NCBI GenBank assembly: GCA_965203275.1
Contig: OZ241865.1
Span: 1,760,001-1,824,000 of the forward strand
DNA length: 64,000 bases
Source of the DNA: Bdellovibrionales bacterium
GTDB taxonomy: Bacteria > Bdellovibrionota > Bdellovibrionia > Bdellovibrionales > JAUICD01
Direction of reading: 5' to 3'
Shown: positions 25,864-54,300 of the stretch, piece after piece
How the letters are laid out: every line of letters begins with the position of its first letter
How positions within the stretch are numbered: the first letter of the stretch is position 1
The notes under the pieces: model-generated
The model's input: only the letters and a program-made list of their open reading frames with translations
Database searches by the model: none
What the model was told of the DNA's origin: nothing
Made by a program: the position numbers and the translations under genes

Positions 25864-26948
25864 AGAAAAATACAGAGAAATGAACGTCTTGTTTCCTTAA
25901 CATTTCACTCAAAATGCATCATGCCGTCTTTTGCACTTGAAATGAACCACACCTCTGTTTCCCTAAAATTGAACTAGCCTCTGGCTACTTTTGGGCAGTT
26001 AGCCCGACGACTGTCGTCGTCGATCAAAGGCTAACTCCCTCAAAAGCTTGTTCAATTTTAGGAAGAAGGATGTCCTCATTTTTTTACTTCATATTAAGGA
26101 AAAAGATTTCCTTCTGATGTTTGCTCTGACAGCTATCGCTGTCCAAAAAGAGCAATGTCGTTGGTTCACTAAAAGTAAACTAGCCTTTGTTTCACTCAAA
26201 GTGAACTGGCCTCTGGCCACTTTTGGACAATGACCGCAAAGGCTTTCGCCTTTGACAAAATGGTCATTGCCTCAAAAGCCTGTTCACTTTGAGTAAGAAG
26301 GATCTCATCGTCTCTTAACTACATGTTAAGGAAACAAGATTTCCTTCGTTCTTGCCGGGTTGCCGGATCCTGGATCCCGGATCCCAGAAAAATACGATGT
26401 TAAGGAAACAAGATGTTTATTTCACGTCGATAAATGGTCATTGCCTCAAAAGCCTGACCACTTTTAGTTGGGAGGATCCTCTCGTCTCTTTACACGATGT
26501 TAAGGGAAAAGTTCCTTCTTACATCTTTTGCCTGCAAAGGCTTTCGCCTTTGACAAAATAGGCAACACCTAAAAAATCCGTTCATTTCAAGTAAGAAAGG
26601 ATATCCTTGCCTCTTGACATCATGTTAAGGAAAATGTCCTTCTAATGGCAGTTAGCCCGACGGCTTACGCTGTTGACAAAATGGTCATTGTCTCAAAAAT
26701 CTATGCATTTTGAGTAGAGAAGGATCCTTTTATTCCTTTACACCATGTTAAGGAAAAATTCTTTTATTTTCTTAGGAGCAAGCGACTTACGATAAAGGAA
26801 CTTTTTCCTTAACATGTAGTTATGAGACGAGGATATCCTCCCCTACTAAAAGTAAACGGACTTTTGAGATAGCCAGCCTTTGATCGACGGCGACAGCCGT
26901 CGGGCTGGCTATCCAAAAGCAACCAGAGGTTGGTTTACTTTTAGTGAA
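25864..26948. repeat. Mosaic structured-repeat cluster 1
   Basis: Full units at ~25961-26103, 26191-26334 and 26803-26948 (reverse), plus partial units and heptamers. Confidence 0.9.
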
Positions 26949-27323
26949 TTAAAACCGAGATGTATGGTACTTAAAGTCTTTCACCCTTTTGCTTTCATCA
27001 AAGTTGATAATAACAGTTAAGGTTTTTTGTCGGGATGTACGTTTTCCGCTACTCCCACCTATTAAAATCAATGTACCATAAGCTTGAGAAGTCGATACTG
27101 AACTGCTGATTTTATCGTAAATCCACACTTCGTTACCATCGTCATCTGTACTCACAATATTCGGAGAGCCTAAAACAGTGGCAACTTCTGCCCCACTCAT
27201 GCCTCTTTTGATTTCTTTTTGTACTGCTCCAACTGTAAGCTGTTGGCTATCATCACGTTGAGTGGCACATCCACTTATGAATAATACTGCAAATAAAACT
27301 GTAAATAATTTTAAATGTTTCAT
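26949..27323 (-). CDS. SmpA/OmlA (BamE-like) lipoprotein
   Basis: Lipobox ISGC; IKRGMSGAEVATVLGSP...EVWIY...LTVIINFDESKRVKD. Confidence 0.75.
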   Translation of the reverse strand: MKHLKLFTVLFAVLFISGCATQRDDSQQLTVGAVQKEIKRGMSGAEVATVLGSPNIVSTDDDGNEVWIYDKISSSVSTSQAYGTLILIGGSSGKRTSRQKTLTVIINFDESKRVKDFKYHTSRF

Positions 27324-27654
27324 TCTATACTCCTTTTTGTTGCATTTGATTTTTCGTCTATAATTATAGTGTGCTTTCTATTAACTTTTGTCAATGAAAT
27401 ATTTTTTATCTCCAAATCTCCAACAATTTACATAAGCCATAAGTATCTAAGTGCATTTCTTGACCATCAAAACAGCAACAGAAAAACTTAACCTTTTAGT
27501 AAAAGATATTCCTAAAAGAACTTAGCATTAAATAACTTCTTTAAAATACTTAACTCATATAATAAAAAGAGTCTTTTTATAACCTCTAAAGCCTAAAATA
27601 ATTTATTTTTGCTATGATGCTATTATGATCGCTATGATCTTTTTCCGTAGTATT

Positions 27655-28671
27655 TTATTCTAAAATCTTTCGAGAATTAATAAGGCCTTGAGCTTCACGT
27701 TCTTGTATAGATTGTTCAAATGTCACCATGCCTTGTGACCGGCTTGTTTGCATAATAGAAGGTATTTGAGATATTTTACTTTCACGAATACAATTAGATA
27801 CAGCAGTGTTCGTTATAAGCACTTCAAAAATAGCCACTCGACCTTTTTTATCTGCTTTTTTAACTAAAGTTTGTGCTACAACTCCTCTTAAAGATTCAGC
27901 AAGCATAGTTCTAATTTGCCCTTGCTTTTCAGCGGGAAACACATCAATGATCCTATTAACTGTTTGAACAGCACTGTTGGTGTGAAGTGTTCCAAAAACA
28001 AGATGGCCTGTCTCCGCAGCCGTCAAGGCTAACTGTATAGTTTCTAAATCTCGCATTTCACCCACAAGAATCACATCAGGGTCTTCCCTCAAAGTAACCC
28101 TGAGTGCTGCTGCAAAGGATTTACTATGTGTATAAATCTCTCTTTGATTGATAAGAGATTTTTTGTTTTTGTGTACAAATTCAATAGGGTCTTCAATGGT
28201 AATGATATGTAGATTATAATTTTCGTTTAAGTGATCAATCAAAGAAGATATGGTAGTAGATTTACCAGAACCTGTATAACCAGTGACAAGCACTAATCCA
28301 TTATGATTAGAAGTTAAGTTGATAATAGAATCTGGAACCAAAAGACTTCGAGAAGATTGTACTATATCAGGTACATATCGGAAGACACCACTAATCCCTC
28401 TTAATTGCATGAACAAACTTAAACGGAAACGACCTTCCCCCTTCACACTATAAGCACAATCTAACTCTAAATTTTCTGTAAATTGTTTTTTTTGCCTCTC
28501 TGTAAGTAACTCAAAAAGCAACCCTTGACATTCTGAAGCAGTTAAATCTCTATATTTGACAGGACACATATCTCCGTGAATACGCATAAAAGGTGGGCAA
28601 CCACTACTAATGTGCAAATCTGAACCATTTGCCTGCTTTAATTTAACCAATAAATCATCTAATTTTGCCAT
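27655..28671 (-). CDS. pilT: Type IV pilus retraction ATPase
   Basis: SDLHI, TGYTGSGKST, TIEDPIE, LREDPDVILVGEMRD, AAETGHLVFGTLHT. Confidence 0.93.
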   Translation of the reverse strand: MAKLDDLLVKLKQANGSDLHISSGCPPFMRIHGDMCPVKYRDLTASECQGLLFELLTERQKKQFTENLELDCAYSVKGEGRFRLSLFMQLRGISGVFRYVPDIVQSSRSLLVPDSIINLTSNHNGLVLVTGYTGSGKSTTISSLIDHLNENYNLHIITIEDPIEFVHKNKKSLINQREIYTHSKSFAAALRVTLREDPDVILVGEMRDLETIQLALTAAETGHLVFGTLHTNSAVQTVNRIIDVFPAEKQGQIRTMLAESLRGVVAQTLVKKADKKGRVAIFEVLITNTAVSNCIRESKISQIPSIMQTSRSQGMVTFEQSIQEREAQGLINSRKILE

Positions 28672-28917
28672 TAGAACCTCTTTTGCTCTTAAAGTTTTTA
28701 TTATTTTCTTTCAATATAATCGGCACTTGATAAAAATTATTTAATTTTTTTGAAAATTTAAAAATATTGTATCATTATGAAACAATATTAACTTTTAATG
28801 ATATGATGATGATTGTATTAAAATGAGACAATCTAAAGGTATAGCAAAAATCCAAAAACAATTTCAAATGAGAAGAAAAATGCACGATAACAAACAGATA
28901 ACAATGAGGTACAAATT

Positions 28918-29922
28918 ATGATCAACGTAGCAGTTATAGGAGCAACAGGATTGGTAGGTTCTACTTTGCTTCAAATACTTAGGGAGCGTAAGTTTCCTTC
29001 CTCTCATTTGGCCTTATTTGCAAGCAGAGCTTCTCAAGGACAGAGCATATCCTTTGGTCAAGAGCGTATTGTGTTAGATGTTCTTTCTGAAGATAAACTT
29101 CAAAATTTAAATTTAGCTTTTTTTGTAGCTGATGATCCAATAAGTCGTAAATGGGTTCCTATAGCTCTTAAGGCAGGTGTGACTGTGATAGATAATGCTG
29201 CTACTTTTCGTATGGATCCTCAAGCTGTCTTGATTGTGCCTGAGGTCAATGGTCATTTGTTGTCATCAAAACCTCACTTGATTGCTAACCCGAATTGTTC
29301 GACTATACAAATGGCTGTGGCACTTTGGCCTCTTGACCAAAAGTTTGGTATTGAAACCATTAAAGTAGCCACTTATCAATCAGTGAGTGGATCTGGAAAG
29401 GCTGCTATTGAAGAGCTTAAGCATAATACATTAGCTGATCTCAAAAGCCCATCTCAAAATACCAAGTCACAAGTTTATCCACATAATATTGCTTTCAATA
29501 ATTTGCCTCATATTGGTTCTTTTAATAATGAAGGCTTCTGCACTGAAGAGATAAAAATGAGAAATGAAATGCGAAAAATTTTTAACAACCCATCTTTGAA
29601 AATCACAGCTTTTTGTGTTCGAACTCCTACCTTAAATGCTCATAGTGAGGCAATATGGGTCACATTTAAGCAAAAAACTAATTTAGCTGACATTTTATCT
29701 TGTTTAAAGTCTGCTCCAGGGATTCAAGTGATAGATCATCCTAGTCAAAACCAATATCCTTTAGCAAGGATGGCATCAGGTCAGGATCATGTATTTGTAG
29801 GACGTATTCATCAAGACCCTGATGATGATCGCACTTGGCTGATGTGGGTTGTAGCAGATAATATTAGAAAGGGAGCAGCTCTCAACGCAGTGCAAATTGC
29901 AGAAATACTACATGACTTATGA
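28918..29922 (+). CDS. asd: Aspartate-semialdehyde dehydrogenase
   Basis: GATGLVG, NPNCSTIQ, TYQSVSGSG, DNIRKGAALNAVQIAE. Confidence 0.96.
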   Translation: MINVAVIGATGLVGSTLLQILRERKFPSSHLALFASRASQGQSISFGQERIVLDVLSEDKLQNLNLAFFVADDPISRKWVPIALKAGVTVIDNAATFRMDPQAVLIVPEVNGHLLSSKPHLIANPNCSTIQMAVALWPLDQKFGIETIKVATYQSVSGSGKAAIEELKHNTLADLKSPSQNTKSQVYPHNIAFNNLPHIGSFNNEGFCTEEIKMRNEMRKIFNNPSLKITAFCVRTPTLNAHSEAIWVTFKQKTNLADILSCLKSAPGIQVIDHPSQNQYPLARMASGQDHVFVGRIHQDPDDDRTWLMWVVADNIRKGAALNAVQIAEILHDL

Positions 29923-29982
29923 CCCTGTCAGAGCAATGCCCATTACCATTCGCAATCATTTTTTGAATTTGAAGCATTAAAT

Positions 29983-30356
29983 CCTGAGTTTGACAGTTGA
30001 TTTGCAAATATGGGCATCTTCTTTTTTAAGAATGCTTTATTTATAGGTGTTAGAGGGTTGTAAGTTTTAATTTTTAAATTTCGTCAGAATTTGTAGTGAA
30101 ACAAATTTTTGTAAATTTTGATAAATAAAGCATTGACATAGAAAGCTATGTATTATTGAGTAAAGATGATGATGAAAATATGAAAATCCTAAAAATAAGG
30201 GGGAAATATGAAGTTTCAGATGAATAAATTAATGATTTCCCCTAAATTAAAACGCTTACAGTAAAAAAAGCTCACATCCTAGTGGCACAAAATCTTATTA
30301 CGCCTATAACCTATTGAAATCTCACAACTTTATTTTTGCAGGCTATCAAACTCAGG
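29983..30356 (+). mobile_element. 374-bp non-autonomous IS1634-like element (MITE)
   Basis: Terminal inverted repeats CCTGAGTTTGACAG / CTATCAAACTCAGG; left end matches the sequence upstream of the transposase remnant at 49862. Confidence 0.8.
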
Positions 30357-30364
30357 ATTTACTC

Positions 30365-32905
30365 CTACCTCACACCACATGTACCACCTATACATTCCAT
30401 CATACCATCGCAATCTGAGGTAGATTCGCAACCATTGTGTCTTTGTCTTGGATGTGCTGATCTTGTAGATGGTTTTGCTTTTAAACACTCTCCTGAATTC
30501 GCACCGCCTTCAATCCCATCACACCGCCATCGATAAAACATAGCGTTATCAGGATAAGCTGCATCATTTTGTACACCATCATGACATCCATTAATTATGG
30601 CATTGTTACACCTTCCACGAACAGGGCCGGGATCACCTTCTTTTCTTTTAGAACAACCAACTTCTTTTCTACCATTACAGCTAGAAAATTCTCTATGTGG
30701 TTTATTACGGCAGGTCCAGCGATGGTGAGTATAAGTATCACCTGGATGCGGGTGTTTATCTCCAGTGGCACATGAATGTTTAGTGTCACCACACTTCCCA
30801 CATATAACTGCTTTTGGTGGTAAATTGCCACTTTTTGATGCTCTGCAAGGGACTTCTCTTTTATTATTGCATTTAGCAAGTCTTTCGTGTGGTTTATTAC
30901 GGCAAGTCCAAAGATACTCAGTTGCACTGTCAGGTGGGTGTTGGTGATATGTTCCAGAAGAACAAGGATCTTGTGTATCAGAACTACATTGTCCACATCC
31001 AGAGACGGCACCTCCACCTGGGCTTGCAGAACCTATTCTCGGATATTTCCATCTAGCATGAATATATTCGATGCTCTTATTCACTCGACATGTCTCATGT
31101 GTGACATCAGTCCATGCAGGCGTTGGAGTATTGGCTCCTGCTCCTGCTAAGAAGTCAATAATTTGAACATCTTCACTGTTATTAGGACTTCCTTCACCAC
31201 GATAATAAGCCACAGTATCTGCAGAAATGCGACTACAGTTTGATCTGACACAGTTTTTATAGCCAAATCGCGGGTCTATGCGATGTAATTCATTTACAAC
31301 TAAATCCAAAAATCTATGGTCATTAGTATACTTTGAACCATCCCATACAGCCTCATAAGCTACTGGATTTTCATCGGCAAGTCTTTTTACCACATGTTGC
31401 ATCCTAGCTGGCTTGTTTTTAGATGGAGAGTTGCAAGTGGTGTAACCTCTAGAACTGCCACCTGTATTGCCACTAGAGCCACTACTACTAAGAGTCGCAG
31501 TCCCTCCTGTGCCACATCCTGAACCACCGGTGGCACCACCTCCATAATTAGGAACTGTAATCCAAGCAATATTACTTCTTTCATTACGAGAACCACTCCG
31601 ATAATCTGCTGGATGTAATCCCCAGGTAGAGGCTGCAAATCCTAATGTATCCCCAGGTTGTGGATACCAATTGGCAATGGGAGCAAATGCAGCTCGGGTG
31701 GCTGAATCTTTTAAATGACTAGCGTTTGTTTTTCTGACTAAGTAAGCAATGACTCCTGCTAAATCGTACCCTTTATGCCCTAGGGTACATTCTGTACCTG
31801 ATGCTGAGGCTTGTGATTGATTGCCACACATCTCATTATTTCTGGAACGTAAACCTTCATAAATTGTGGCATAAATTTTCCCATCTGGGCGAGGAATAAA
31901 TATCCATGCACTTCCTTGATTATACCAAGGAGTCCTAGAACCATCACTATTTATGCACTTACTATAGCCTGGATCTATTCTGGCATCCCAGACATTTCTT
32001 TTTGTATGATTGACACAAACACCTCTTGTAGATATAGAAGCAGTTAGAACTCTAGATGTTTCTGACCAATTACTAATATTTTGAGTACGCCATGCACCTC
32101 CGTTGATAAAAACCACATTATTCCAAGAAAAACTACTGGGATTAAAATGGCTGTTGGGTTGAAAATGACTATTGGGCTGAAAATGGCTACTACAAGTAGG
32201 ATCACGGGTGATAGGCCCTCCGCCTGAGCCACCGCCTCCTGAACCACTGCTTCCTGAGCTACCACCTCCTGAGCTACTTCCACCAGAACCGCCCCCTGTT
32301 TTTGTCGTATCATCATTTTTAGTAGAAGGAGGAGGTGGTAGAGGGGGAGGAGATGATCCATATCTATTATAAATCCAAGCCCCTTGAATATTAGATTGTA
32401 GATTCCAAGTGAATTGAGGATTGCTGTCACAATTGTTAAGAATTTCATAAACATTTATGTCACTGCTTCTTTGACGTCCTACACCATTCGTCCCTTTATA
32501 CCAAGCAATATGAACTGTTGAGATTTGATCTGGTTCATTAATGCAATCCTCACCTATTGGGCAGTAATATCCCCAACGCCAAGACTCATTAGGATCACCA
32601 TTCTCTCTTAATCTATTTATTTTATCATCTACAAAATTATAATTATCACAAGCATTCTCACCAGGTGGTGGTGGGGGATCGTTAGGATTTTCTTCAGGAT
32701 CAGGGTCAATTTCACGTGGAGTGTGATTGGGTTCTGGTGGTGTTGGATAGTAGGTATCTCCATTATTTGGAGTAGTCTTAGGTGGGGTGGTAGAAGTAAT
32801 GTGAATAGGACTATCTACTGATTTACAATTGTTAAATTGTAAGCTCAATAGGGCTAAAAATGCAATAGTAGCAATAAAAGAAATTTTCTTATTCATTATC
32901 TTCAT
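30365..32905 (-). CDS. Large exported Pro/Gly/Cys-rich multidomain protein (adhesin-like)
   Basis: Signal ending LQFNNC; Pro- and Gly/Ser-rich linkers; repeated CGxC...C..G..H.HP.D.....WTCRNKPH modules. Confidence 0.75.
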   Translation of the reverse strand: MKIMNKKISFIATIAFLALLSLQFNNCKSVDSPIHITSTTPPKTTPNNGDTYYPTPPEPNHTPREIDPDPEENPNDPPPPPGENACDNYNFVDDKINRLRENGDPNESWRWGYYCPIGEDCINEPDQISTVHIAWYKGTNGVGRQRSSDINVYEILNNCDSNPQFTWNLQSNIQGAWIYNRYGSSPPPLPPPPSTKNDDTTKTGGGSGGSSSGGGSSGSSGSGGGGSGGGPITRDPTCSSHFQPNSHFQPNSHFNPSSFSWNNVVFINGGAWRTQNISNWSETSRVLTASISTRGVCVNHTKRNVWDARIDPGYSKCINSDGSRTPWYNQGSAWIFIPRPDGKIYATIYEGLRSRNNEMCGNQSQASASGTECTLGHKGYDLAGVIAYLVRKTNASHLKDSATRAAFAPIANWYPQPGDTLGFAASTWGLHPADYRSGSRNERSNIAWITVPNYGGGATGGSGCGTGGTATLSSSGSSGNTGGSSRGYTTCNSPSKNKPARMQHVVKRLADENPVAYEAVWDGSKYTNDHRFLDLVVNELHRIDPRFGYKNCVRSNCSRISADTVAYYRGEGSPNNSEDVQIIDFLAGAGANTPTPAWTDVTHETCRVNKSIEYIHARWKYPRIGSASPGGGAVSGCGQCSSDTQDPCSSGTYHQHPPDSATEYLWTCRNKPHERLAKCNNKREVPCRASKSGNLPPKAVICGKCGDTKHSCATGDKHPHPGDTYTHHRWTCRNKPHREFSSCNGRKEVGCSKRKEGDPGPVRGRCNNAIINGCHDGVQNDAAYPDNAMFYRWRCDGIEGGANSGECLKAKPSTRSAHPRQRHNGCESTSDCDGMMECIGGTCGVR

Positions 32906-32990
32906 CCTTATTCGTATCTTTATTATTAATTTCTCAAATTCTCTCTAAGTGATTCATCAGTACCTTTAGAGAGTACGAAAAAATGAACCT

Positions 32991-33402: not shown

Positions 33403-33439
33403 TGATTTCTAATTTCCAAATACCTCTTTTCCATCTTTT

Positions 33440-34268
33440 AGAAAAAATACAGAGAAACGAACGTCTTGTTTCTTTAACATTTCACTCAAAATGAGCCACA
33501 CCGCTGGTGTGTTTTTGGGCATTGCTCTGACAGCTATCGCTGTCCAAAAAGAGCAATGCCTCAAAAATCCGCTCATTTTGAGTAGAGAAGGATCTTTTTA
33601 TTCCTTTACACCATGTTAAGGAAAAATTTCTTTTATTACCTCAAAAGCAAGCAGGTTGCGATAAAGGAACTTTTTCCTTAACATCGTGTTTTTCCGGGAT
33701 CTGGGATCCGGGATCAGGCAACCCGGCATCAGGTCCTAAAACTGAACTTTTTCCTTAACATGTAGTCAAAAAACGAAGAGATCCTCCTCTACTAAAAGTA
33801 AACGGACTTTTGAGGTTGCCAGCATTTAAGAAGGCGAATAGCCTTCGGCTGGCAACCCAAAAGTGACCAGAGGTCAGTTTACTTTTAGTGAAACAGTTCA
33901 GGCAATATTAGATTTGGAATTTGTTGGTTGTATGGAATTAGCAAAACAAGCTGATAAATTAGGAGCTTATTTATACAAGTTGTGTAAAAACACTTAAAGT
34001 CAAAATTGATTTTTTCCGGGATCCGGCATCCGGGATCCCGGCAGACAGGCAAGAATGAAGCGAATATCTTGTTTCCTTAACATGGTGTTAAGAAACGAAG
34101 AGATCCTCCTTACTAAAAGTGGTCAGGCTTTCTAGGTTGCCAGCATTTAAGAAGGCGAATAGCCTTCGGCTGGCAACCAGAAAGTGACCAGAGGTCAGAC
34201 CACTTTTAGTGAAACAGAGATGTGGCTCATTTTGAGTGAAACAGAGGTCAGACCACTTTTAGTGAAAA
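33440..34268. repeat. Mosaic structured-repeat cluster 2
   Basis: Full units 33481-33624, 33750-33893 (rev) and 34072-34213 (rev); heptamers; short terminal tandem units. Confidence 0.9.
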
Positions 34269-36181: not shown

Positions 36182-36390
36182 CCTAAGTTTGATAGCCTGC
36201 AACAATAAAGTTGAGCAGTTAGTTATAAGTCGAAAGAGATTTTGTGCCACTAGGTTTTTGTCTTTGTGGCAGAATTTTAGAAAATCTATGTTGTTCCAAT
36301 AAAAGTAAAGTAGCCAGAGGCCCCTGGTTTATTTTTAGGGAAACAGAGGTGTGGCTCATTTTAAGGGAAATAGACCACCTTTATGAAACA
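36182..36390. repeat. Solo IS1634-like right end (36182-36254) followed by degenerate mosaic-repeat cluster 3
   Basis: cctaagtttgatagcctgc...gtgccacta; then agagg...gaaac short units. Confidence 0.7.
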
Positions 36391-37531: not shown

Positions 37532-37910
37532 AATTGAACTAGTTCACTCAAAATGAGCGGATTTTTTAGATGTTGCCTATTTTGTCAAAGGCGAAAGCCA
37601 TTGCAGGCAACACTCAAGGTGTAAGAAGGAACTTTTTCCTTAACATCATGTCAATCCGGGATCTGGGATCCGGGATCTGGCAACCCGGCATCAGAAAGGA
37701 CTTTTTCCTTAACATGTAGTTAAGAGATGAGGAGATCCTTCTTACTAAAAGTAAACGGACTTTTGAGGTTGCCAGCATTTAAGAAGGCGAATAGCCTTCG
37801 GCTGGCAACCCAAAAGTGACCAGAGGTCAGTTTACTTTTAGTGCAAAAGACGGCTAGTTCAATTTTAGGGAAACAGGAAACAGAGGTCAGACCACTTTTA
37901 GTGAAACAAA
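37526..37910. repeat. Mosaic structured-repeat cluster 4
   Basis: Full reverse unit 37702-37843, partial unit 37543-37625, heptamers 37655-37692. Confidence 0.9.
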
Positions 37911-44692: not shown

Positions 44693-47600
44693 TTAAAAAA
44701 TAAGAGAAGTAGCACAGGAATCTTTAAACCATTCTGAAATTTTGCGAGGTACGCCTATTTGTACTTTTTCTTTTAAAGACAAAGTCATTTCAGGAAGTAA
44801 CTTTTCTACTTTTAAGCTTACAGCTTCTTTTAATCTAGCTACAGGAGTTTTGGTCGGTTGTAATAAAAAAGCTTCATATTGATTTAACTGAATAATCCCT
44901 TTTACAAAATCAAAATAAACAATGTCAGGATGCATCTTAAGATCGCTTAAAGTAGCAAGAATAGAATAATAAGCTGTCACCTCTGCTATTTCTTTTGAAG
45001 GGAAGTATCTTTTCAAAGCACTTGTTAAAGATTTTACATTTACAGATAAATGCATTTCATCAATAATTTTATTTACAATCCAGTTTACTGGTCCTGTCAT
45101 TTTCATAATTTGAGCTAAGGCAAACAAGGTAAATATTTGATCTCTTTGTTGAACTGTAATGCTGACCATTTGTCCCCAATCAATAGGATGAATATAAACA
45201 TGATGATCTTCTATTCGTATTCTATAATTGCCAGGGTGCCTATCAGGGTCAAAAACAATAACAGCTTTTGGATCATTGATTTCTTGAAACAAATTATACC
45301 CTTCTACTTCTAATAACCTTTGAGCAATGAAACTTCTATGTTCTGCTTTTTCTATGTCAAAAATAGAAACTCCTTCCACAAATTCTTCGGCAATCAAACG
45401 GTCATTTAAGAAAAAGCTTTTGGGTACAGTAATTGTGGTTGAAGGATGAGAATAACCTTGATAAATATTTTGTTGTGCCATTTTAGATTTGGTAGCTTCA
45501 TTTTTTAAGCTGAGTTCTCGCTTTACAGCATGTTGAGCAGCATAAACAATGGATCGAAAGATTCCATAACGAGAACCAAATTTCTGTGTTAAATAATCTG
45601 CCATAGCATCTAATTGACGGAATTGCATAGGTGTATTGGCAATAGCCTCTAATCTTAAAACTTTTAAAACAATTTTTTTATCTACATGTTGTAAATGATT
45701 TTGCTTAGCAGAAACAGCATATTTAAGTGATGCAGCACCAAGTAAATCTTGTACTTCTACTGGTAAATTCTGGTTGTGATTAATTTGTCTTAAGTCATTA
45801 TAAATACTTTGACGTTCAGGAATAAGAGCTTTATCTTGTAAAGCTCTTAGGTGCTTTGTTTCAGATTCAGGTAGCAAATGAGCTGCCAATATAAACTGCC
45901 CTATTTTGATGCCTGTTGTTCCAAAAACCTCTAAGATATTTTTCAAAACTTGACCAGAGCTTTGTATTTCACTAGATGGCATCGCTAATAAGTAAGCTAG
46001 AACATAACTTTTAAGACCAGTGTTGCCTGTTTTTTCAAGTGAATATAAAAAGGCTTCTAATATTTGTCGAGTGACGACTTGGTTTTCAGGTGAAAGATGT
46101 TTTAATAAATAATCTACAATAATATTGGTATAACCTTTGTTTAAATGAACTGTTGGAGTTAGACCATGAGGAGCATCTAATAAAGTATCTAAAAGGCTTG
46201 TTTTAACAACCTGAGGGAATAAACTAAATATTCTTTTTATTCTTTCTGTTCCAATAGTTTTAAATAATTTTTTGATTTTAGGTCCAGCAGGAACTTCACC
46301 TCTTAAAAAAAGTATAAAATGCCATTGATGTTTTAATCTCCAAGAAGTAATCTTTGCTATTAGTTGAGAAAAGAATCGCAATCCAAAGTCTTCTTGTCTT
46401 TCTCCCCCATCTGGATACTTTGCTTTGTGGATCAAACTACTTTCTTCAGGTGTGGATCTTATTTCATTAGATAGTCTCTCTAAAAAATCAATATAAGTAG
46501 CCCCTTGTTCAGGGAAGGAATGATGTGTAGATCCCATCAGTAATTTTAAACTATTTAAACGCATGTCTTTATCGGATGTTTCTTTTAGTGTTTCATACAC
46601 AGAAGATTGTTTGATGGTGTTCTCTAGTATAAGGGCTTTAATTTTAGGCTCCCAAACTCGTCCATCTAAAGCTAATGCTTCAATATTTACTAAACCACCT
46701 AGAGATGAAAGCTCTTGCTCTGATAAAGATAAAGCTTCTGAATAAATCTCAGAAAACAATGCATCTGTAATGGAAGTCACTCCACGCAATACAAGCTTTT
46801 TCCATAGCTTAAATTTCCCTTTAAGGTCTTGTGGAAACAAATCTAAGTCTTTAAGCCTTTGTATATATATTTTATGAAGTTCTTCACTTGATCCTGGTTC
46901 ATATTTCCATATTGTAGGATATTCTTTAACCATTTTTTTGAAGGTTTCTAAGATCATCCCTTCCAAGCTTCTTGTGTTAATATGATCTTTATTACGGTAT
47001 TGAACCCAAAAATATTCGTTTTGAAGTAAAAGATCAAAATCCTGAGGCTTCGCAAGCCAATGAGGGTTATTTAAAATAGCAAGCTGAAAATAAGAGGCTA
47101 ACTGATTGAGTAATACATGACGTGGTTTGAGTTCCGAATCAACATAACTGACTAACTCTGCAAGACTGTGAAACTTTGTAGAAAAGAATTTTTGAATAGT
47201 AGCTTTGTCTTTTTTATCCCAGTACTTTCTTTCCAATGCATGGAAATTTGGATAGTACTTATCAGTAAATAAGTCATCAGATACACTTTTCCTTAGAGAG
47301 TGGATGGCTATATAAGGAGGTGTATTTTGTTGAGCTTTAGCGATTGATAAAAGTTGTTGATCTGCAATAAAAGATTGTTTAAGACTTGGTCTGTAAAATG
47401 TACCTTTCATTTTTATTTGGTTTAAAATAAAAGCAAAATCATCTACATATTGAGATGGAACCGATGGATATAAAACATAATTTACGAAAGAATTCATTGG
47501 AATATCTTTGAAAATTTCATAAGCCTCTGTAAAAAAGCCTTCATCAACAGCATATTTCATAGTTAATAATTTTTTTTCTAAAGGATCATCAGGATTTAAA

Positions 47601-49237
47601 CGTTCTAAAAAATGCAATGCGTTTAGCTTTTTTTGAAGTGGTGAAGAAATTTGCTCAGGATTGTAATGAAGTATATTTTGATGAGGGACCCCCACAAAAG
47701 ATTCAACAGTTTGTCTTAAGTTTTGATTTAAGAGAGCAAAATTAGGTAAATTGTCAAGTGATTTGTGGATATCACTTAAAAGTTGATCATCTAAATGAGA
47801 ATAATTATTTAAAATATACTTTAATAGTTGGTTTACATTTTTAAAATAAAAATCTTTTAAGCGATCTATTCCTATGCGTAATCGAGTATACGGGATTTTT
47901 ATATATGATTTGTTATAGTAAATAATAGATAACGCACTTAAAGAATAAATGCCTTTAGATAAAGCCCTTACAATATTAGGATATTCATATATTCCTCTTT
48001 GAATATTTTGATAAATTTGAGAGTATTCTAATTCAAGATTCTTTCTTTCTTTTTTAAGACCTTCTAGTTTGTTTATTACATTATATGCAGATTGATATTC
48101 TGCATTTTTTATGGCACCGTCACTAAACAAAATAAGAGAAATAATCAGTGTTGTGAACGTCAGTTTTTCTAGTAATGGTAATGGTAATGGTATACTAATG
48201 GAAGTGGTAAGCCCATCAACAGGAGAAAATAGAGTGGCAATAATAGAAGTCAGACTGGATAAATCAACGAAAGGTCGAATCAATAGATAAGCTAGAGATA
48301 ACTTTTCAACTAGTATATTGCTGAAAGGTAAACTTAGTATTTGAGATCTTCTGTGCAACAAAGACAAAGAGAGATTAGGTTTTTTATAGTCCTGTACTTG
48401 TTTTGATAGATCCTCGTTGAGGCTCCTGTGAAGAATATATGTTTTTATAGCTGAAGCACGAATTTCAAAAGAAGGATGAGTGCTATAATAATCACTATTC
48501 ATTTGAAAAAGCCGTCTAATTAATCTAATAAACTTGTTCATAATCATTTTATTATTAAATTTTCCCAGAGTTTTCATGAGATTATATGAAGCCCATGGAT
48601 TATATCCTGCTTTAATCAATCTATCAGTAGCTCCTAAATCTGCACGAATTTCTTCTCTTTGAGAAGTGTTAAGCTCCTTATAAACTCCAATGGTATTTAA
48701 AGCTTCATCCATATAAGGAGCATCTTCTTGAGCTTTAAAATGTTTTATACGGGCATGAGTGATCTCATGGGCAATGACAGCGGCTAAAAAATCTTCATTA
48801 GAAAGAATAAAGGACAATACCCCTAAATAGATCACTATATGAGATATATCTTCATCAAGATGTATATGAGCATTAGGTGTGAGTTTAGCAGAAACCTTAA
48901 ATATGTAATCAGCAGATTCATTTGGTAGAGAAAGTGCCTTAATGATTTCTTCAATTTTACGATATAAGGTTCGCTTATGTCCTAAAAGCATCAATCGTGC
49001 CAGAATGCCTGCACGGCTGTCGATATTTATATTGTGATTTCTCTGTAGGTCATCCCTGGGTGTTTGTTGTGATGATGGGTGCTTTGTGATTTGTAAGAGA
49101 GAAGATAGATCATTTGATTGTGTTTGATGATCGTTTGCTATTGCTAAGAGATATGGATTTTGTTCTACTTTTAAAAAGCATAAACATAAAAATATTAAAA
49201 TACTTAAAGGTCTCATAATGCTTTGAGGAATTAACAC
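44693..49237 (-). CDS. Fusion protein: N-terminal M48-like Zn peptidase and C-terminal ABC1/UbiB-like atypical kinase
   Basis: LAAVIAHEITH...EEIRAD...AGYNP...STHPSFEIR (M48); IKIGQF...LQD...LGAAS...VLKV...REL...DRHPGN...IDWG (ABC1). Confidence 0.78.
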   Translation of the reverse strand: MLIPQSIMRPLSILIFLCLCFLKVEQNPYLLAIANDHQTQSNDLSSLLQITKHPSSQQTPRDDLQRNHNINIDSRAGILARLMLLGHKRTLYRKIEEIIKALSLPNESADYIFKVSAKLTPNAHIHLDEDISHIVIYLGVLSFILSNEDFLAAVIAHEITHARIKHFKAQEDAPYMDEALNTIGVYKELNTSQREEIRADLGATDRLIKAGYNPWASYNLMKTLGKFNNKMIMNKFIRLIRRLFQMNSDYYSTHPSFEIRASAIKTYILHRSLNEDLSKQVQDYKKPNLSLSLLHRRSQILSLPFSNILVEKLSLAYLLIRPFVDLSSLTSIIATLFSPVDGLTTSISIPLPLPLLEKLTFTTLIISLILFSDGAIKNAEYQSAYNVINKLEGLKKERKNLELEYSQIYQNIQRGIYEYPNIVRALSKGIYSLSALSIIYYNKSYIKIPYTRLRIGIDRLKDFYFKNVNQLLKYILNNYSHLDDQLLSDIHKSLDNLPNFALLNQNLRQTVESFVGVPHQNILHYNPEQISSPLQKKLNALHFLERLNPDDPLEKKLLTMKYAVDEGFFTEAYEIFKDIPMNSFVNYVLYPSVPSQYVDDFAFILNQIKMKGTFYRPSLKQSFIADQQLLSIAKAQQNTPPYIAIHSLRKSVSDDLFTDKYYPNFHALERKYWDKKDKATIQKFFSTKFHSLAELVSYVDSELKPRHVLLNQLASYFQLAILNNPHWLAKPQDFDLLLQNEYFWVQYRNKDHINTRSLEGMILETFKKMVKEYPTIWKYEPGSSEELHKIYIQRLKDLDLFPQDLKGKFKLWKKLVLRGVTSITDALFSEIYSEALSLSEQELSSLGGLVNIEALALDGRVWEPKIKALILENTIKQSSVYETLKETSDKDMRLNSLKLLMGSTHHSFPEQGATYIDFLERLSNEIRSTPEESSLIHKAKYPDGGERQEDFGLRFFSQLIAKITSWRLKHQWHFILFLRGEVPAGPKIKKLFKTIGTERIKRIFSLFPQVVKTSLLDTLLDAPHGLTPTVHLNKGYTNIIVDYLLKHLSPENQVVTRQILEAFLYSLEKTGNTGLKSYVLAYLLAMPSSEIQSSGQVLKNILEVFGTTGIKIGQFILAAHLLPESETKHLRALQDKALIPERQSIYNDLRQINHNQNLPVEVQDLLGAASLKYAVSAKQNHLQHVDKKIVLKVLRLEAIANTPMQFRQLDAMADYLTQKFGSRYGIFRSIVYAAQHAVKRELSLKNEATKSKMAQQNIYQGYSHPSTTITVPKSFFLNDRLIAEEFVEGVSIFDIEKAEHRSFIAQRLLEVEGYNLFQEINDPKAVIVFDPDRHPGNYRIRIEDHHVYIHPIDWGQMVSITVQQRDQIFTLFALAQIMKMTGPVNWIVNKIIDEMHLSVNVKSLTSALKRYFPSKEIAEVTAYYSILATLSDLKMHPDIVYFDFVKGIIQLNQYEAFLLQPTKTPVARLKEAVSLKVEKLLPEMTLSLKEKVQIGVPRKISEWFKDSCATSLIF

Positions 49238-49328
49238 TATTCCTTTAAAATGTCAACCTGTATGTGCTGTATGTGTATGAAAAGCATGAAGAAAATAAAA
49301 GTTGAATATCAAATGCAGGATTCACTAC

Positions 49329-49862
49329 AAAATCAGATCGCATTTTAGGATGTTTTTCTTCAAATCTGCTAATAATTATAGAGGTTTAACTGTTTTAAAA
49401 TAGCATCTATAATAAGCAAAAGACCTAAGATAAATGCCTCTTTTACATTCACTTGTTTGTGATCTTAGAGGCTGTTAAAAGTTTTGAATGTTTCTTTAAT
49501 AAACTTGCAAGACTTTTTAATGTCTTATCTTTATCTTTACAACGACCTAAAGACATAAGAGTCCGATGACGGCTCACACTCTTCCCTTGATGGTCTCTTG
49601 TGCGATAGCTTTCTACAATATGATAATAAGTCTGCCCTTGGGCGTTTGTGGTTTTCTTTATAAACATAAGAGCATACTACTATAAAAATACAAAAAATCA
49701 ACAAAAAAATGACTTTTTAACGCACCACATTCGAATTTTGTTTTGCTAGGATTTTTTACAAAATCCCCAAAATTCAAGCTTACAAATCTCTCTAACACCT
49801 ATAAATAAAGCATTCTTAAAAAAGAAAATGTCTAAATTTGCAAATCAACTGTCAAACTCAGG
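49329..49862 (-). mobile_element. Truncated, frameshifted IS1634-family element (left end + transposase 5' fragment)
   Basis: MFIKKT...YYHIVESYR...RHRTLMSLGR is an IS1634-type N-terminus; continues out of frame as EAFILGLLLIIDAILKQLNL; terminal repeat CCTGAGTTTGACAG at 49862. Confidence 0.75.
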
Positions 49863-50020
49863 ATTTATTAAAAAAATAAACCTTCAAATCAGAGCTATGA
49901 TGCAGTGTGGAGTTGTGAAACCTTGTTTTTTGCCAATATTAGCTCAAATCATAGCTTTTTTGTTCTGCTCCACTATCTTTCTTAAAATCCCTGTGATATT
50001 CTATAATATGGAGGCTACGT

Positions 50021-50554
50021 ATGAAAAAAAATAATGATATGGAAAAAAACAATGATTATGTGACTAAAACTGACTTAGATAACCTAGAGGCCAAGCTAAG
50101 CAATAAAATAGAAGGCAACAACATTACTCAAATCAAATGGACCATAGGCATACTCATAGCCTTTGCTATTTTGTTTTTCTCAGTTCAAGGTTATATGATT
50201 GATGATATAAAAGAAGATATTGCTGTTCAAAATGCTAGAATTGAGAGCATAGAAACCAGAATTGGAAGCATGGAAAACAGAATTGGAAGCATAGAAAACA
50301 GAATTGAGAATATAGACAACAAAATTGACAGCCTAAGAAATTTATTTATTATTGTTCTAACTAAGAATGGAAAAATAAACCCTGAACTTTTGAAAGATCA
50401 ATTGAAAACTCCTACTGATGCTAAAAAACAAGCTCCCCAAGATGTTGATCAGGTTGAAGGTGATTCTGGTGCTAACGGATTAGTAGTTCCACCGGACGGT
50501 GGAAGTGAAAGCCTTAAGCCAGTGAGAGTTGGACAGGGAACACAAAACCCATAG
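50021..50554 (+). CDS. Small TM/coiled-coil protein with 7-aa repeats
   Basis: RBS ggagg; VTKTDL...IKWTIGILIA TM; repeats RIESIET/RIGSMEN/RIGSIEN. Confidence 0.8.
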   Translation: MKKNNDMEKNNDYVTKTDLDNLEAKLSNKIEGNNITQIKWTIGILIAFAILFFSVQGYMIDDIKEDIAVQNARIESIETRIGSMENRIGSIENRIENIDNKIDSLRNLFIIVLTKNGKINPELLKDQLKTPTDAKKQAPQDVDQVEGDSGANGLVVPPDGGSESLKPVRVGQGTQNP

Positions 50555-50560
50555 TGTATC

Positions 50561-50765
50561 TTATTTATCTAGAGCATTAAGCCTCTCGCCGTGTTTTTCT
50601 AGCTTGTCATCGATTTTGTCAAACTTCCTGTCGTGCCTGTCTATTCTATCGTTTACCCTTTCCAATTCCTTATCTATTTTATTAAACTTGACTATAAACT
50701 CCTTTATCTTTAAAGCTATTCCTGCAATAACCCCAAAAAATTTTTCATTATGCTACTTCTTTCAT
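50561..50765 (-). pseudogene. Disrupted small coiled-coil protein gene
   Basis: Minus strand reads EKFFGVIAGIALKIKEFIVKFNKIDKELERVNDRIDRHDRKFDKIDDKLEKHGERLNALDK*, with the start codon out of frame. Confidence 0.5.
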
Positions 50766-50934
50766 GTTCTCTCTTGTTTCATTCAAAATGTGTTCATTAT
50801 ATTCTACAAGAAAGTCAAGGGGGTCTATTCCATCGTCTACAAGACAAGAGATAATCCATTTAAACGTTTTCGGATGTTTGCAAAAAATCTTTAACAAAAA
50901 TAAGAAAAAATATTAAATTTTTCAGTAGGTTGCT

Positions 50935-52262
50935 CCTGAGGTTGATAGCCTGCAAAAATAAAGTTGTGAGATTTCAGTAGGTTAAAAGTTTGTCTGTTTT
51001 TTACTCTTTCGAATTGTGACTTTTATACAAAAGTCACAATATTAAGTTACTAGAATCACTGGATTTCCAATTTTTAAATACCTTTTAAATACCCTTTTCT
51101 TAACCTTTTAGAAAAAAATCTAAAAAGACGAACGTCTTCTTTCCCTAACATTTCACTCAAAATGCATCATGCCTCTGGCATGTTTTCTGGCAGTTAGCCC
51201 GACGGCTACCGCCGTCGATCAAAGGCTAACTGCCTAGAAAATCCATTTATTTTGAGTAGGGAGGATCCTTTTATTCCTTTACACCATGTTAAGGAAATTT
51301 TTCTTTTATTGTCTTAAGAGCAAACAAGTTTACAAATGAAACTCTTTTTCCCTAACATTGTCTTTATCCGGGATCTGGGATCCGGCAACCCGCCATCGGG
51401 CAGACAGCTATCAAAAAGAACTTTTTCCTTAACATGTAGTTAAGAGACGAGGAGATCCTCCCCTACTCAAAATGCATAGATTTTTGAGGCAATGACCATT
51501 TTGTCAAAGGCGAAAGCCTTTGCGGTCATTGCCCAAAAACATGCCAGAGGCATGATGCATTTTGAGTGAAAATAAAGTCATAACTTTGAACCTCCCTTTA
51601 TATCTTTAAACATAATACTTAATAATAACTTAATTTCCAATAATCTGTCCTCCAAGAAACATTATATTATAACTTAGTCAAAAAACCAACCAGAAAGTGA
51701 CCAGAGGTCAGAGCACTTTTAGTGAAACAGAGGTGTGGCTCATTTTGAGTGAAACAACTCCCTAACCCCACCCCCCGCCCTCTAATTCTGCTTTTTTATC
51801 TTATTTATGTATGAGTGGAATGCGGGTGCAGGCTTCCGAAGTCCTCAACCTTCGCTTGCTTTTGAGGAGCAAGCGGGTCTGCGGAAGATCTCCAGCCTGC
51901 CCCCGCCTCCCACTCATAATACTCATGCTTTTTTGAAAATTACGCAGAATCTAAAAGAGAATAAAAAAAAACAAAAAAGAACTTTTTCCTTAACATTTCA
52001 CTCAAAATGAGCCACACCTCTGGTGTGTTTTTGGGCATTGCTCTGACAGCTATCGCTGTCTAAAAAGAGCAATGCCTCAAAAAACTGCTCATTTTGAGTA
52101 GGGCGAATCTCCTTTCTTCTTGACACCATGTTAAGGAAAAAGTGCTTTTATTGCCTTAAGAGCAAGCGGGTCTGCGGAAGATCTCCAGCCTGCCTCCGCC
52201 TCCCACTCATAATATTTATATTTTTTTTGAAAATTACGCAGAATCTAAAAGAGAATAAAAAA
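50935..52262. repeat. Solo IS1634-like end (50935-50985) and mosaic structured-repeat cluster 5
   Basis: Full units 51153-51297, 51421-51570 (rev) and 51997-52140; palindrome module 51015-51060; GC-rich hairpin 51811-51917. Confidence 0.9.
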
Positions 52263-52266
52263 CGCA

Positions 52267-52295
52267 AAAAGCCCTCGTGGTGATGAGGGCTTTTT
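52267..52295 (-). terminator. Rho-independent (bidirectional) terminator
   Basis: aaaagccctc-gtggtgat-gagggcttttt downstream of the OMP gene. Confidence 0.8.
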
Positions 52296-52354
52296 AATTT
52301 GTAAAAGAAGAAGAAAATTATGAAAATGGTTTTTTGTTTGAATGTGGTTGTTTG

Positions 52355-53125
52355 CTAGCCAAAGAACCAACCAACACCTAATGTTACATATAAACCATTG
52401 AACTTAAGCTTTTTAGTTTTAGCATCTTCACCTGTACCTTCTCTAGCTAAGGAAGTAGCACTACAATCGGCTAGAGCAACATCACCGGTGGCTGTTTGGC
52501 ATTTTAAATCACCAAATGAAAGCAGATCATAACCTGCTTCGACTTTAGCTAAAAGATTTTGATTGATCTTATAACCTAGCTCCAAGCCTGCTTGACCGCC
52601 AATAGATTGCCATAAAAATTGCCTACTCTTAATTTCGTAATTAACATTAGTAGGAGCAATACCACTATGTGAATAGACTAGAGACTTCCAAATATCTAAA
52701 CCTACAACGGCCCCTACAAAAAACTGATCCAAATGAAATCTGTAATTCAATAAGAGAGCGACACGATGATGAGTGAATTTATATTTATCATCAGCAGAAG
52801 GAGTATCATTTCCACCTGCATCTACAGGGTCTTTTTCGCCTGTAAAGGCCAAACGATAACGGACACCTAATCCTAAGCTAGCTGCATCCATCATTTGACG
52901 ATATAAAACATCTGCCCCTAAATGAAAAGGACGATTTTTCTGTTTGGCATTAGGGATGCCTGATCCTTCACCTCTTACTTCATCAAGATTCAATTCCCCA
53001 AAATTCATACCAAAATGAGCAGAAAACTCAGCATTTCCTAAAGCTGTATCAGCTAAGCTAAAACTGCCCAGAAAAACAGCTACATACATTAAACTTTTTA
53101 TTTGTTTTAAATTGAGACTTAACAT
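52355..53125 (-). CDS. Outer-membrane beta-barrel protein
   Basis: Signal peptide, alternating amphipathic strands, C-terminal GLYVTLGVGWFFG. Confidence 0.8.
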   Translation of the reverse strand: MLSLNLKQIKSLMYVAVFLGSFSLADTALGNAEFSAHFGMNFGELNLDEVRGEGSGIPNAKQKNRPFHLGADVLYRQMMDAASLGLGVRYRLAFTGEKDPVDAGGNDTPSADDKYKFTHHRVALLLNYRFHLDQFFVGAVVGLDIWKSLVYSHSGIAPTNVNYEIKSRQFLWQSIGGQAGLELGYKINQNLLAKVEAGYDLLSFGDLKCQTATGDVALADCSATSLAREGTGEDAKTKKLKFNGLYVTLGVGWFFG

Positions 53126-53788
53126 AATAAGTACCCCCTAATAATGTTAGTTAAATTTTTAATTTATACATAATAAACAATTACCGACCTCCATGTCAAT
53201 AATAACTGCACCTTATGTTTAATTACAAATACCTTATTACTTTATCGACATGGACCTAAATTAATTAAAATTTATTTTATGTTTTTTCACGCATATAACA
53301 CTCCTTTGCTTTGATTTTCGGTTTATTCTTTAAATCCTTAAAATTAAAGGATTATCCTTTACATTATTAATTAATTCATTTTGTATCATTTTGCAACACT
53401 TTTTTATTTATATTTTTTATTTATACAAGATAACTTCTCATTTGTTGTTATATTCTAATAAACTTGATATTTTCTCTTTAAAATCAAATAATCCACAAAC
53501 TAAACAATAAATACTCTATCCTTATTACACCTTCACAATATCTCTTTTTAGCTTAAAACCTTGCTTTTAAGCAAGGTTTTATTAAATTTGATTTATAGAT
53601 TTTATTTTAATCACTTATATATTTACTACCTTAACCTTTAAAAACTTTCAGTCATAACCTTATATAAACATATTTATATTCATTGTACAAGCAATTTTAA
53701 AATTAATTCATTTTAAAACAGCTTTTTATATCATCATATCACAAAAAATACTACATAAGTGTCTCTTTTTGATACATTTCGTTCATTT

Positions 53789-54300
53789 TTCACTAAAAGT
53801 GGTCTGACCTCTGGTCACTTTTGGGCAATGACCGCAAAGGCTTTCGCCTTTGACAAAATGGTCATCTGGTTCACTAAAAGTAAACCAGCCTCTGGCTACT
53901 TTTGGGTAGCCAGCCGAAGGCTATTCGCCTTCTTAAATGCTGGCTACCTCAAAAGTCCGTTTACTTTTAGTAGAGAGGATATCCTCATTTTTTAACACGA
54001 TGTTAAGGAAACAAGATATCCATTCCCGGGATCAGGCAATCAGGCATCCCGGGTCCCGGAATCTGATGCCAAGTCCCAGATTAACACAAAGTTCCTTTAT
54101 CGCAACTCGCATGCTCCCTAAAAACATTTTAGAAGCATATCTTGTTTCCCTAACATGGTGTCAGAAGCAAGGAGATCCGCTCTACTCAAAATGAGCAGAT
54201 TTTTGAGGTATTGCTCTTTTTAGACAGCGATAGCTGTCAGAGCAATGCCCAAAAACACACCAGAGGTGTGGCTCATTTTGAGTGAGAAAAGTTCCTTCTT
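53789..54300. repeat. Mosaic structured-repeat cluster 6
   Basis: Truncated unit 53789-53866; full units 53870-54012 and 54146-54285 (rev); heptamers between. Confidence 0.9.

Follow-up and report, generated by a model that had tools for sequence, protein, structure and literature searches.

A dispersed 146-bp repeat with a covarying four-stem fold in a Bdellovibrionales genome, a candidate non-autonomous mobile DNA element

Introduction

REP sequences, with their BIME and REPIN forms and associated RAYT proteins, occur as hundreds of extragenic, noncoding, lineage-specific hairpin repeats in both orientations (PMC3116915, PMC3733652, PMC6006769, PMC3479197), with high copy numbers, clusters, tail-to-tail inverted doublets, subfamilies with alternative complementary stem residues, a conserved bulge, and insertion without target duplication. 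Here we describe a dispersed repeat of about 146 bp from a 64,000-nt stretch of a Bdellovibrionales genome (the window, G000:1760001-1824000, where G000 is the source genome; coordinates below are window positions unless prefixed) that shares all of these features, yet folds into a 146-nt branched structure where REPs and REPINs have a single imperfect hairpin of 20 to 65 nt. We place at roughly 55% the probability that it is a non-autonomous selfish DNA repeat that a trans-acting enzyme recognizes as folded single-stranded DNA (ssDNA) and copies to other sites.

IS91 and Helitron elements move by a rolling-circle route and have one fixed end and one ragged end with carried-along flank, without target duplication. 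Our repeat resembles them in its one fixed and one ragged end and in the lack of target duplication but has no conserved target tetranucleotide, and no Y2 or Rep_1 gene was found in five genomes of the family, a result that is uninformative since the control searches were silent too. Integron attC sites conserve structure over sequence, carry an extrahelical base, and act as folded ssDNA substrates; the repeat parallels them in the first two respects and, putatively, in the third. It is, however, dispersed where attC sites form a cassette array, the attC boxes RYYYAAC and GTTRRRY are found in 4 and 2 of 702 copies, and the two tyrosine recombinases of the genome score best as Xer-type.

Two ssDNA-based systems are closest in chemistry. 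RAYT/TnpA-REP nicks ssDNA and holds the 5′ end on a tyrosine, any free 3′-OH may resolve the joint, GTAG serves as a guide, and cleavage occurs at CT (PMC3479197). IS200/IS605 ends are folded ssDNA with an extrahelical T, to which our repeat is analogous, and they too lack inverted terminal repeats and target duplication (PMC6006769). Unlike them, the repeat has no left- and right-end pair around an open reading frame (ORF), no TnpA or TnpB, and an imprecise 3′ end, and where IS200/IS605 insert precisely 3′ of a tetra- or pentanucleotide, it shows no target consensus at 435 sites and loses target DNA.

Results and Discussion

Anatomy, abundance, and covariation

G000 is a single contig of 2.57 Mb (35% G+C, 90% complete by markers) whose relatives are Bdellovibrionales, and long pieces ~96 to 98% identical to it occur in a run labeled sponge metagenome. 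Comparison genomes are G001, of the same genus, together with G002 to G004, G007, G011, G113, and G148. The first-pass annotation of the window had reported a ~140-bp repeat in about 12 full copies. All 12 are real by covariance-model matches, on the strands given and with starts within ~5 bases, and it gives the variants of P1 (six), P2, and P4 and the TGTTAAGGAAA end correctly; the unit is, however, about 146 bp long, and the 12 copies share their arrays with stubs, truncated remnants, and 7-base runs and belong to a genome-wide family. Read 5′ to 3′, the unit comprises a leader, (Y)TGTTTC; stem P1 (13 bp); P2 (5 to 6 bp, closed by a TCT loop); P3 (~15 bp, with one T bulged); an asymmetric internal loop; P4 (6 to 7 bp); a 4-nt joint; and a 35-nt tail in which TGTTAAGGAAA is the near-invariant end. 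A profile built from the window copies has 1,328 matches in G000, 746 of them full-length (380 minus, 366 plus), amounting to 6.1% of its bases, and none in the reversed genome used as a control. The element occupies 18% of noncoding and 0.04% of coding bases. Short-read unitigs from four public, independent runs pile up on the repeats at 50 to 150 times single-copy depth, which rules out an assembly artifact.

Pairing is kept while sequence differs, as the first-pass annotation had observed in proposing selection on a three-way-junction fold. P1 is perfectly paired in 11 of the 12 window copies (the exception, at 51150, has 2 mismatches) and in 569 of 702 parsed genome copies, compared with a mean of 92 (maximum, 115) when arms are shuffled among copies, and one copy folds with a z score of −10.4 as DNA and −9.9 as RNA against 200 shuffles. 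In an alignment of 57 copies from three genome bins (12 from the window, 40 from G001, and 5 from G004), 93% of cells are paired versus 79% in shuffles, a control that ignores relatedness, and 31 of 40 pairs have changed on both sides (P1, 9 of 13; P2, 5 of 5; P3, 11 of 15; P4, 6 of 7). Minimum spanning trees of G000 stem haplotypes with at least 5 copies contain at least 48 compensatory pair changes (15, 9, 18, and 6 in P1 to P4), a lower bound that allows for relatedness, with P3 partly misparsed; relatedness alone therefore does not explain the covariation. The single bulged base described as conserved in P3 is a T in 536 of 562 distinct parsed copies. Covariation support is absent for the tail hairpin (P5; 1 of 8 pairs changed on both sides in the same 57 copies) and for a short hairpin after the 3′ GTAG.

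Perfect pairing of the stems may be kept by selection, or partly by arm-to-arm copying. Quasi-palindrome correction is template switching of this arm-to-arm kind, and it is central to an account that we consider quite unlikely, in which no dedicated enzyme exists: hairpins break or stall forks, host repair patches the breaks with copies of the repeat, and template switching between arms perfects the stems, mimicking compensatory selection. Snap-back-like tails (AAGGAA...TTCCTT) fit such an account, but no "correction" is ever seen at the bulged T, in the internal loop, or in the loop sequences.

The stems are interchangeable, with at least 9 × 7 × 10 × 7 haplotypes combined freely but nonrandomly. 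P1 has arms of two types or two or more mismatches in 78 of 702 copies, linkage between tail and core is almost nil (normalized mutual information, 0.00 to 0.19), and tails of identical-core copies differ at 4.8 of 27 positions versus 8.1 for random pairs. Recombination acting on the folded form is not supported: given the P1 type, linkage of P2 with P3 exceeds that of P2 with J3/1 (conditional mutual information, 0.18 versus 0.06 bits). Copies in G001 carry an extra 14-base repeat in the P2 loop. The first-pass annotation did not recognize the repeat as any named family, and an Rfam scan gave no match at gathering score in the window; between 50900 and 54400 there were 14 weak subthreshold matches, one of them on the element (a microRNA model, 21.5 versus 60 bits).

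DNA-level versus RNA-level structure

Whether the fold belongs to a structured noncoding RNA (ncRNA) or to an ssDNA mobile element had been left as an alternative in the first-pass annotation. Wobble pairs are scarce in P1 to P3 (20 G-T versus 114 A-C among ~13,000 cells in low-mismatch copies), mean DNA folding energies are −39.4 (plus) and −40.4 (minus), P1 forms in 100 (plus) and 101 (minus) of 104 copies, and full copies in co-directional gaps number 157 sense versus 182 antisense. The near absence of G-T wobble, the equal folding of both strands, and the lack of gene orientation together favor structure at the DNA level over RNA; of the two alternatives, the mobile ssDNA element gains further from the filled and empty sites and self-nesting described below, while the ncRNA is not favored. 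We regard a structured ncRNA or cis-regulatory RNA family as very unlikely. Its covariation is strong, its predicted fold is stable, there is a modest excess of arrays between convergent genes (84 of 343 versus 149 of 845), and the weak tail hairpin has 455 G-T versus 39 A-C pairs on the plus strand, a count that also tells against structure acting as DNA. Against an RNA, ~750 copies interrupt genes and CRISPR repeats and lie nested within one another, orientation to genes is absent, wobble is nearly absent in P1 to P4, Rfam is unmatched, and the family appears confined to one genus. A promoter reading of the TAACAT hexamer was rejected, with no −35 excess at 16 to 18 nt before it.

Insertion junctions and mobility

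The 533 arrays in G000 are bounded mostly by 5′ ends (85 arrays 5′-5′ versus 3 arrays 3′-3′), and doublets comprise 116 tail-to-tail versus 22 head-to-head pairs. Unique flank lies upstream of 124 and downstream of 14 of 702 copies. Element-derived DNA precedes 847 of 1,391 5′ starts, often an older copy interrupted at one of two hot spots, the P2 loop (CCTCTG) and the antisense end (TAACA). An identical neighbor of the same length accompanies 160 of 698 copies, which indicates recent spreading or conversion, and identical cores occur in many different flanks.

A comparison of filled with empty sites, which the first-pass annotation had called for in related genomes, was possible among G000 paralogs and revealed insertion without target duplication. 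When 702 5′ ends were queried for both flanks in one paralog, 44 queries returned both, many of them redundant or within other repeats. A clean 157-bp insertion in the paralog at G000:1827549-1827691 has its empty twin between 52352 and 52353, within a site (52346 to 52360, minus strand) at the end of the ORF at 52355-53125, with neither target loss nor duplication. Among the unambiguous pairs, single arrays show target losses of 0, 4, 14, 20, 29, 29, 30, and 50 bp, and inverted doublets show losses of 139, 230, 325, 343, and 345 bp; target overlap is 3 bp at one site family and 23 to 40 bp only within repeat arrays. Target duplications are not in excess (direct repeats of 6+ bp, 31 of 124 versus 21.5% when shuffled; 8+ bp, 4 of 124 versus 2.5%). 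Across 435 distinct 5′ junctions, each with an uninterrupted twin, there is no target consensus beyond T-richness, and the leader added is mostly 3 to 4 or 8 to 9 nt. This leader is nearly fixed (Y-T-G-T-T-T-C, then ACT), with YT before its G in 380 of 399 G000 and 25 of 31 G001 contexts, and the 3′ tail is ragged over 10 to 25 nt. Targeting of hairpin loops is not apparent, as unpaired bases are not overrepresented at 210 junctions outside element DNA. Insertions are found in CRISPR repeats and in four-helix-bundle genes, and none of 47 CRISPR spacers matches the element. The element is apparently still spreading, and by breaking genes and making deletions it shapes the genome of a host-associated bacterium.

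These junctions bear on two alternatives. One study has proposed that insertion sequences (ISs), as mobile DNA, can enter preexisting breaks (PMC11708052), and repair without a dedicated enzyme would suit the target loss, the absence of a target consensus, and the absence of a candidate enzyme (see below); the sharp TTTC-ACT start at 1,391 places and the near-invariant TGTTAAGG instead suggest recognition by a protein. We are similarly disinclined to accept a retroelement resembling short interspersed elements (SINEs), in which a minus-strand transcript is reverse transcribed from a target 3′-OH annealed to its GAAACA 3′ end. Such a route would fix the joint at the GAAACA end and leave the opposite one ragged, with loss of target, and the polarity of the junctions, short microhomology at the 5′ leader, frequent reshuffling of tails and cores resembling template switching, and three proteins with reverse transcriptase (RT) domains encoded by G001 all point toward it. 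However, RT searches found none in G000 (the control matched 3 of 14) or G004, the G001 proteins (from their sequences, apparently a group II intron type, a fragment of that type, and a retron-like protein) have no counterpart in G000, P1 to P4 lack wobble, and there is no −35 signal at promoter spacing before TAACAT.

Proposed mechanism and search for an enzyme

In the preferred reading, a non-autonomous repeat mobilized in trans, an enzyme would recognize the folded ssDNA, that is, the three-way junction of P1, P2, and P3 with the bulged T, the internal loop, and P4. The 5′ end would be a joint made by this enzyme, and host repair would complete the 3′ end. Among known chemistries, that of RAYT/TnpA-REP is the simplest candidate; by analogy, it would produce sharply defined 5′ starts at sites without a consensus, with loss of target DNA.

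Several observations, in addition to the wobble count of the tail hairpin, weigh against this reading. No Y1 gene was found in G000 by Pfam (a positive control matched 6 of 14), and a custom profile of 9 Y1 proteins run over 35,090 six-frame G000 segments had a repeat-protein artifact as its best match. The one Y1 gene of G001 was examined as a candidate and rejected: it is IS200-type, has its own ends, and has no element copy in the 2.4 kb read. Target loss on insertion contrasts with the precise insertions of known Y1 elements. The dinucleotide before the leader G is CT in 20 of 31 contexts from G001; in G000 it is CT in 99 of 399 and more often TT (281). REPs and REPINs have GTAG (or CGTC) 5′ of the hairpin foot, where neither motif occurs in any of 702 copies of the element. 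GTAG is found on the 3′ side of the P1 foot in 524 of 702 copies from G000, compared with just 27 of 70 from G001. Reads caught no excision, new insertion, or clean empty allele, and many junctions are copies of one another, so the counts overstate independent events. The lack of a Y1 gene in G000 implies that the enzyme was recently lost, is missing from the assembly, or is of another family.

The element thus behaves like a REP or REPIN but is not a member of that group, as it has no GTAG on the 5′ side, is not a short single hairpin, and has no RAYT gene. A RAYT gene flanked by the repeats is expected in a genome with REPs or REPINs, whereas G000 is without a Y1 gene. Relative to REPs and REPINs, the common unit of the element is a single copy (as in the clean single insertion) rather than a doublet, its insertion removes target DNA, and its stems and tails are reshuffled as modules.

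The first-pass remark that no cognate enzyme is evident in the window extends to all of G000, where no candidate is tied to the element. IS110 DEDD recombinases number 0 in G000, G001, G003, and G004 and 1 in G002. Among candidates tried and rejected, GIY-YIG matches consist of one ORF of 612 to 653 aa per genome, read as UvrC-sized; the single match to the TnpB zinc ribbon (PF07282) is a Cas12-like gene; two tyrosine recombinases score best as Xer-type, far below the integron-integrase cutoff; the HNH gene beside elements is a conserved gene next to a glutaredoxin-like gene in G002, G003, and G004 as well; and Rpn/Transposase_31, with 16 copies in G003 and 1 in G004, does not track the element. 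No AEP primase candidate is tied to it, a regular expression for the HUH motif gave 5 unrelated matches over G000 ORFs, and none of six candidates for an autonomous split form is autonomous.

Multicopy families in G000 include 411-aa and 552-aa transposase-like ORFs (which we take to be IS256- and IS1634-like) along with Rpn, PD-(D/E)XK, and resolvase-like families, none of which shares the ends or distribution of the element. A miniature inverted-repeat transposable element (MITE) moved by a G000 DDE transposase, already disfavored, is extremely unlikely. G000 does have active multicopy ISs, and the leader TGTTTC is complementary to the GAAACA that follows some 3′ ends, but leader and end types do not covary (both in 80 copies, with 82 expected from 289 and 200 of 702), target duplication is lacking, and the ends share nothing with the G000 IS ends compared.

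Two minor gene observations belong to this survey. L010:1417-1980 encodes a 187-aa tyrosine recombinase consisting of the catalytic domain only, in a genome with one full Xer-type gene. A 105-aa HNH gene is present three times (G000:1745319, 1884929, and 1030554) in small phage-like remnants, two of them without an element within 2.5 kb.

Distribution and other structured repeats

The covariance model matches 3 of 151 genomes of the order (G000, G001, and G004) and, across 151 genomes of the phylum, G000 only. All 12 matches in G004 lie on three small contigs, with 0 in 400 kb of its large contigs; proteins on the small contigs are somewhat closer to G000 (medians, 56 to 78% versus 36 to 74%), and these contigs may be misbinned. 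Pattern scans found no match in viral contigs or in phages and plasmids, and one chance match, without a model match, in metagenome contigs. A literature search, with subscription journals outside its reach, found no published description of the 146-bp repeat.

Other genomes of the order carry repeats of their own. G003 (L082, L085) and G004 (L059 to L078) share a different dispersed repeat with conserved structure and variable cores, AAGGTCTTC...GTTGCCC; a ~66-bp module in the same two genomes inserts into this repeat and, in frame, into four-helix-bundle genes. G148 (L144 to L148), G007 (L154 to L158), and G011 (L159 to L163) each have, in 100 kb, branched dispersed elements bounded by inverted repeats, with an apparent relationship between the G148 and G007 elements. 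Neither G007 nor G011 yielded a Y1 gene, and the single Y1 gene of G148 is not flanked by its repeat. In G001 (L046:8536-9225), the element is tandemly repeated, its copies alternating with duplicated fragments of a tRNA-Arg gene.

Association with heptamer-armed four-helix-bundle genes

Arrays of the element in G000 also contain a 101-aa gene of the PF05635/TIGR02436 type (IVS-protein/Avd-like) with arms of 7-base repeats. Four-helix-bundle Pfam matches number 14 in G000, 19 in G001, and 19 in G004 and are absent from G002 and G003. The element lies within 400 bp of 28 of 28 G000 tblastn matches, with the nearest copy opposite in 27, against a baseline of 28% of 1,657 ORFs. In G001 it is near 10 of 17 loci, against a background of 59 in 360 windows (16%). 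Heptamer runs follow the element 3′ end in 155 of 250 cases, in one orientation (wrong-strand control, 15), and precede the TGTTAAG end in 98 of 250 (control, 8). Among nine intact copies of the gene, variation is silent at 34 codons and alters the amino acid at 11. In both species the element enters the gene at the same nucleotide, with three G001 copies sharing their 5′ junction with one G000 copy, and 3′ junctions fall near codons 61 to 67 in five G000 and four G001 copies, with differing tails; this shared place means either that the site is targeted repeatedly or that conversion has preserved an old insertion.

These ties raise the possibility, in our view an unlikely one, that element and gene form one system, in which the unit is carried along by the small protein, which would act with a host enzyme to bind structured nucleic acids and spread them. 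The gene is present in 58 of 151 genomes of the order, compared with 3 of 151 for the element, and 63 four-helix-bundle loci outside G001 yield no convincing model match (best, 26.9 bits). G004 has its 19 genes yet no element match in the 400 kb of large contigs, structured repeats of their own occur in G003, G007, and G011, where the gene is absent, and G113 has 13 genes and no such repeats in 100 kb. Insertion of the element disrupts the gene, the tie may amount to repeats landing in repeats, and the protein is not known to have catalytic activity. Heptamer-armed cassettes and 23S rRNA IVS ORFs resemble the element in sharing its arrays, orientation, and TGTTAAGG end in G000, but the cassettes are a separate, widespread family that occurs without it. 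We conclude that the gene is a neighbor and target of the element and is not required for such repeats.

It is possible, though doubtful, that the element is the cargo of an undescribed DNA mobility pathway without a transposase, recombinase, or RT of a known family, in which folded ssDNA would be attached through its 5′ end at arbitrary sites, target DNA would be lost, and arms would be exchanged as modules. Such a pathway would explain unrelated branched repeats in Bdellovibrionales that lack Y1 genes (G003, G004, G007, and G011) and possibly the spread of heptamer-armed cassettes, giving a long-unexplained family a testable role. Under the preferred reading of a repeat mobilized in trans, an enzyme other than a Y1 transposase would mean a new route of DNA mobility, and a lost RAYT would make this an elaborate but familiar REP-like repeat. 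The ~750 full copies, with natural filled and empty sites in paralogs and CRISPR arrays, form an unusually rich record of the spread of structured noncoding DNA, and the recurring link to the four-helix-bundle gene would allow a functionally uncharacterized protein family to be probed directly for binding.

Copies and remnants in the window

Full copies on the plus strand lie at 25957-26102 (P1 of the CCTAAAATTGAAC type; covariance model, 147.7 bits), 26189-26334 (156 bits), 33479-33624 (129.3 bits), 51150-51297 (142.3 bits), 51995-52139, and 53868-54011 (138.9 bits). The 5′ end of the copy at 33479 abuts the antisense 3′ end of an older copy (TTTCCTTAACA), and the copy at 51150 has a chimeric P1 with arms of two types and 2 mismatches. 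For the copy at 51995, the covariance model and folding predict a 13-bp P1, P2 with a TCT loop, P3 with a bulged T, the internal loop, and P4. Minus-strand copies lie at 26804-26950 (145 bits), tail-to-tail with a remnant that ends at 26756; 33750-33894 (137.7 bits); 34072-34215 (148 bits); 37704-37847 (139.4 bits); 51424-51572 (142 bits), the tail-to-tail partner of 51150-51297; and 54145-54288 (118.9 bits).

Remnants surround these copies. On the plus strand, 25902-25955 holds a pair of 5′ stubs with 5′ starts at 25907 and 25935; both come from older copies, and in each the next copy's 5′ end interrupts P2. Another plus-strand stub (26162-26187; 5′ start at 26168) precedes the copy at 26189. 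By profile, 26426-26756 contains three 5′-truncated plus-strand remnants (model positions 65-146, 48-146, and 39-146), each behind the tail of the preceding copy, and 53787-53864 a 3′-truncated plus-strand copy (model 3-78) cut by the copy at 53868. Two minus-strand 5′ stubs each occupy 34216-34268 (5′ starts at 34237 and 34263) and 37848-37907 (37869 and 37902), 36290-36372 has decayed minus-strand stubs only (36339 and 36366; family D3), and 51687-51755 has, by profile, a minus-strand stub and a partial copy (model 3-44). A plus-strand copy at 59932-60027 lacks the P3/P4 arm (63.7 bits). A 7-base repeat run, (GATCCCR)n, lies at 33676-33745 (minus strand) between the tail of a copy and a second TGTTAAGG end, and similar runs are at 20882-20979, 26373-26386, 34017-34037, 37657-37684, 51369-51389, 54027-54078, and 60043-60115.

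Other repeats, gene families, and CRISPR loci

A second repeat family, with members at 21319, 29983, 30356, 43184, 49862, and 50935, begins with CCTGAGTTTGACAG and matches the ends of the element that encodes the 552-aa transposase; the CCTGAGTTTGACAG family has 83 ends in G000 and probably represents MITEs. Small coiled-coil ORFs with 33-bp internal repeats (21009-21719, 50021-50894, and 60286-61546) belong to paralogous families of 30, 8, 7, and 6. Expansions of PD-(D/E)XK-like, ankyrin-like, pilin-like, and Rpn families in G000 are typical of host-associated bacteria, and L172 (G000:2512139-2514904) and its paralogs encode proteins of 640 to 910 aa with tandem ~70-residue repeats of unknown family.

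A Type V CRISPR locus (L133:5350-16060, or G000:235349-246060, and L134) contains two effector-sized genes. One encodes Cas12a, with 982 aa in G000, where the first ~320 model positions are missing, and 1,407 aa in G001; the other is a divergent Cas12-like ORF of 1,325 to 1,334 aa with a C-terminal zinc ribbon and no NCBIfam match. The effectors are followed by cas4, cas1, and cas2 (cas4 and cas1 are broken in G000) and a Cas12a-type array. The arrays at G000:245324 and G000:2266567 have different repeats and overlapping spacers (27 bases, 96% identical), suggesting that both met the same invader.

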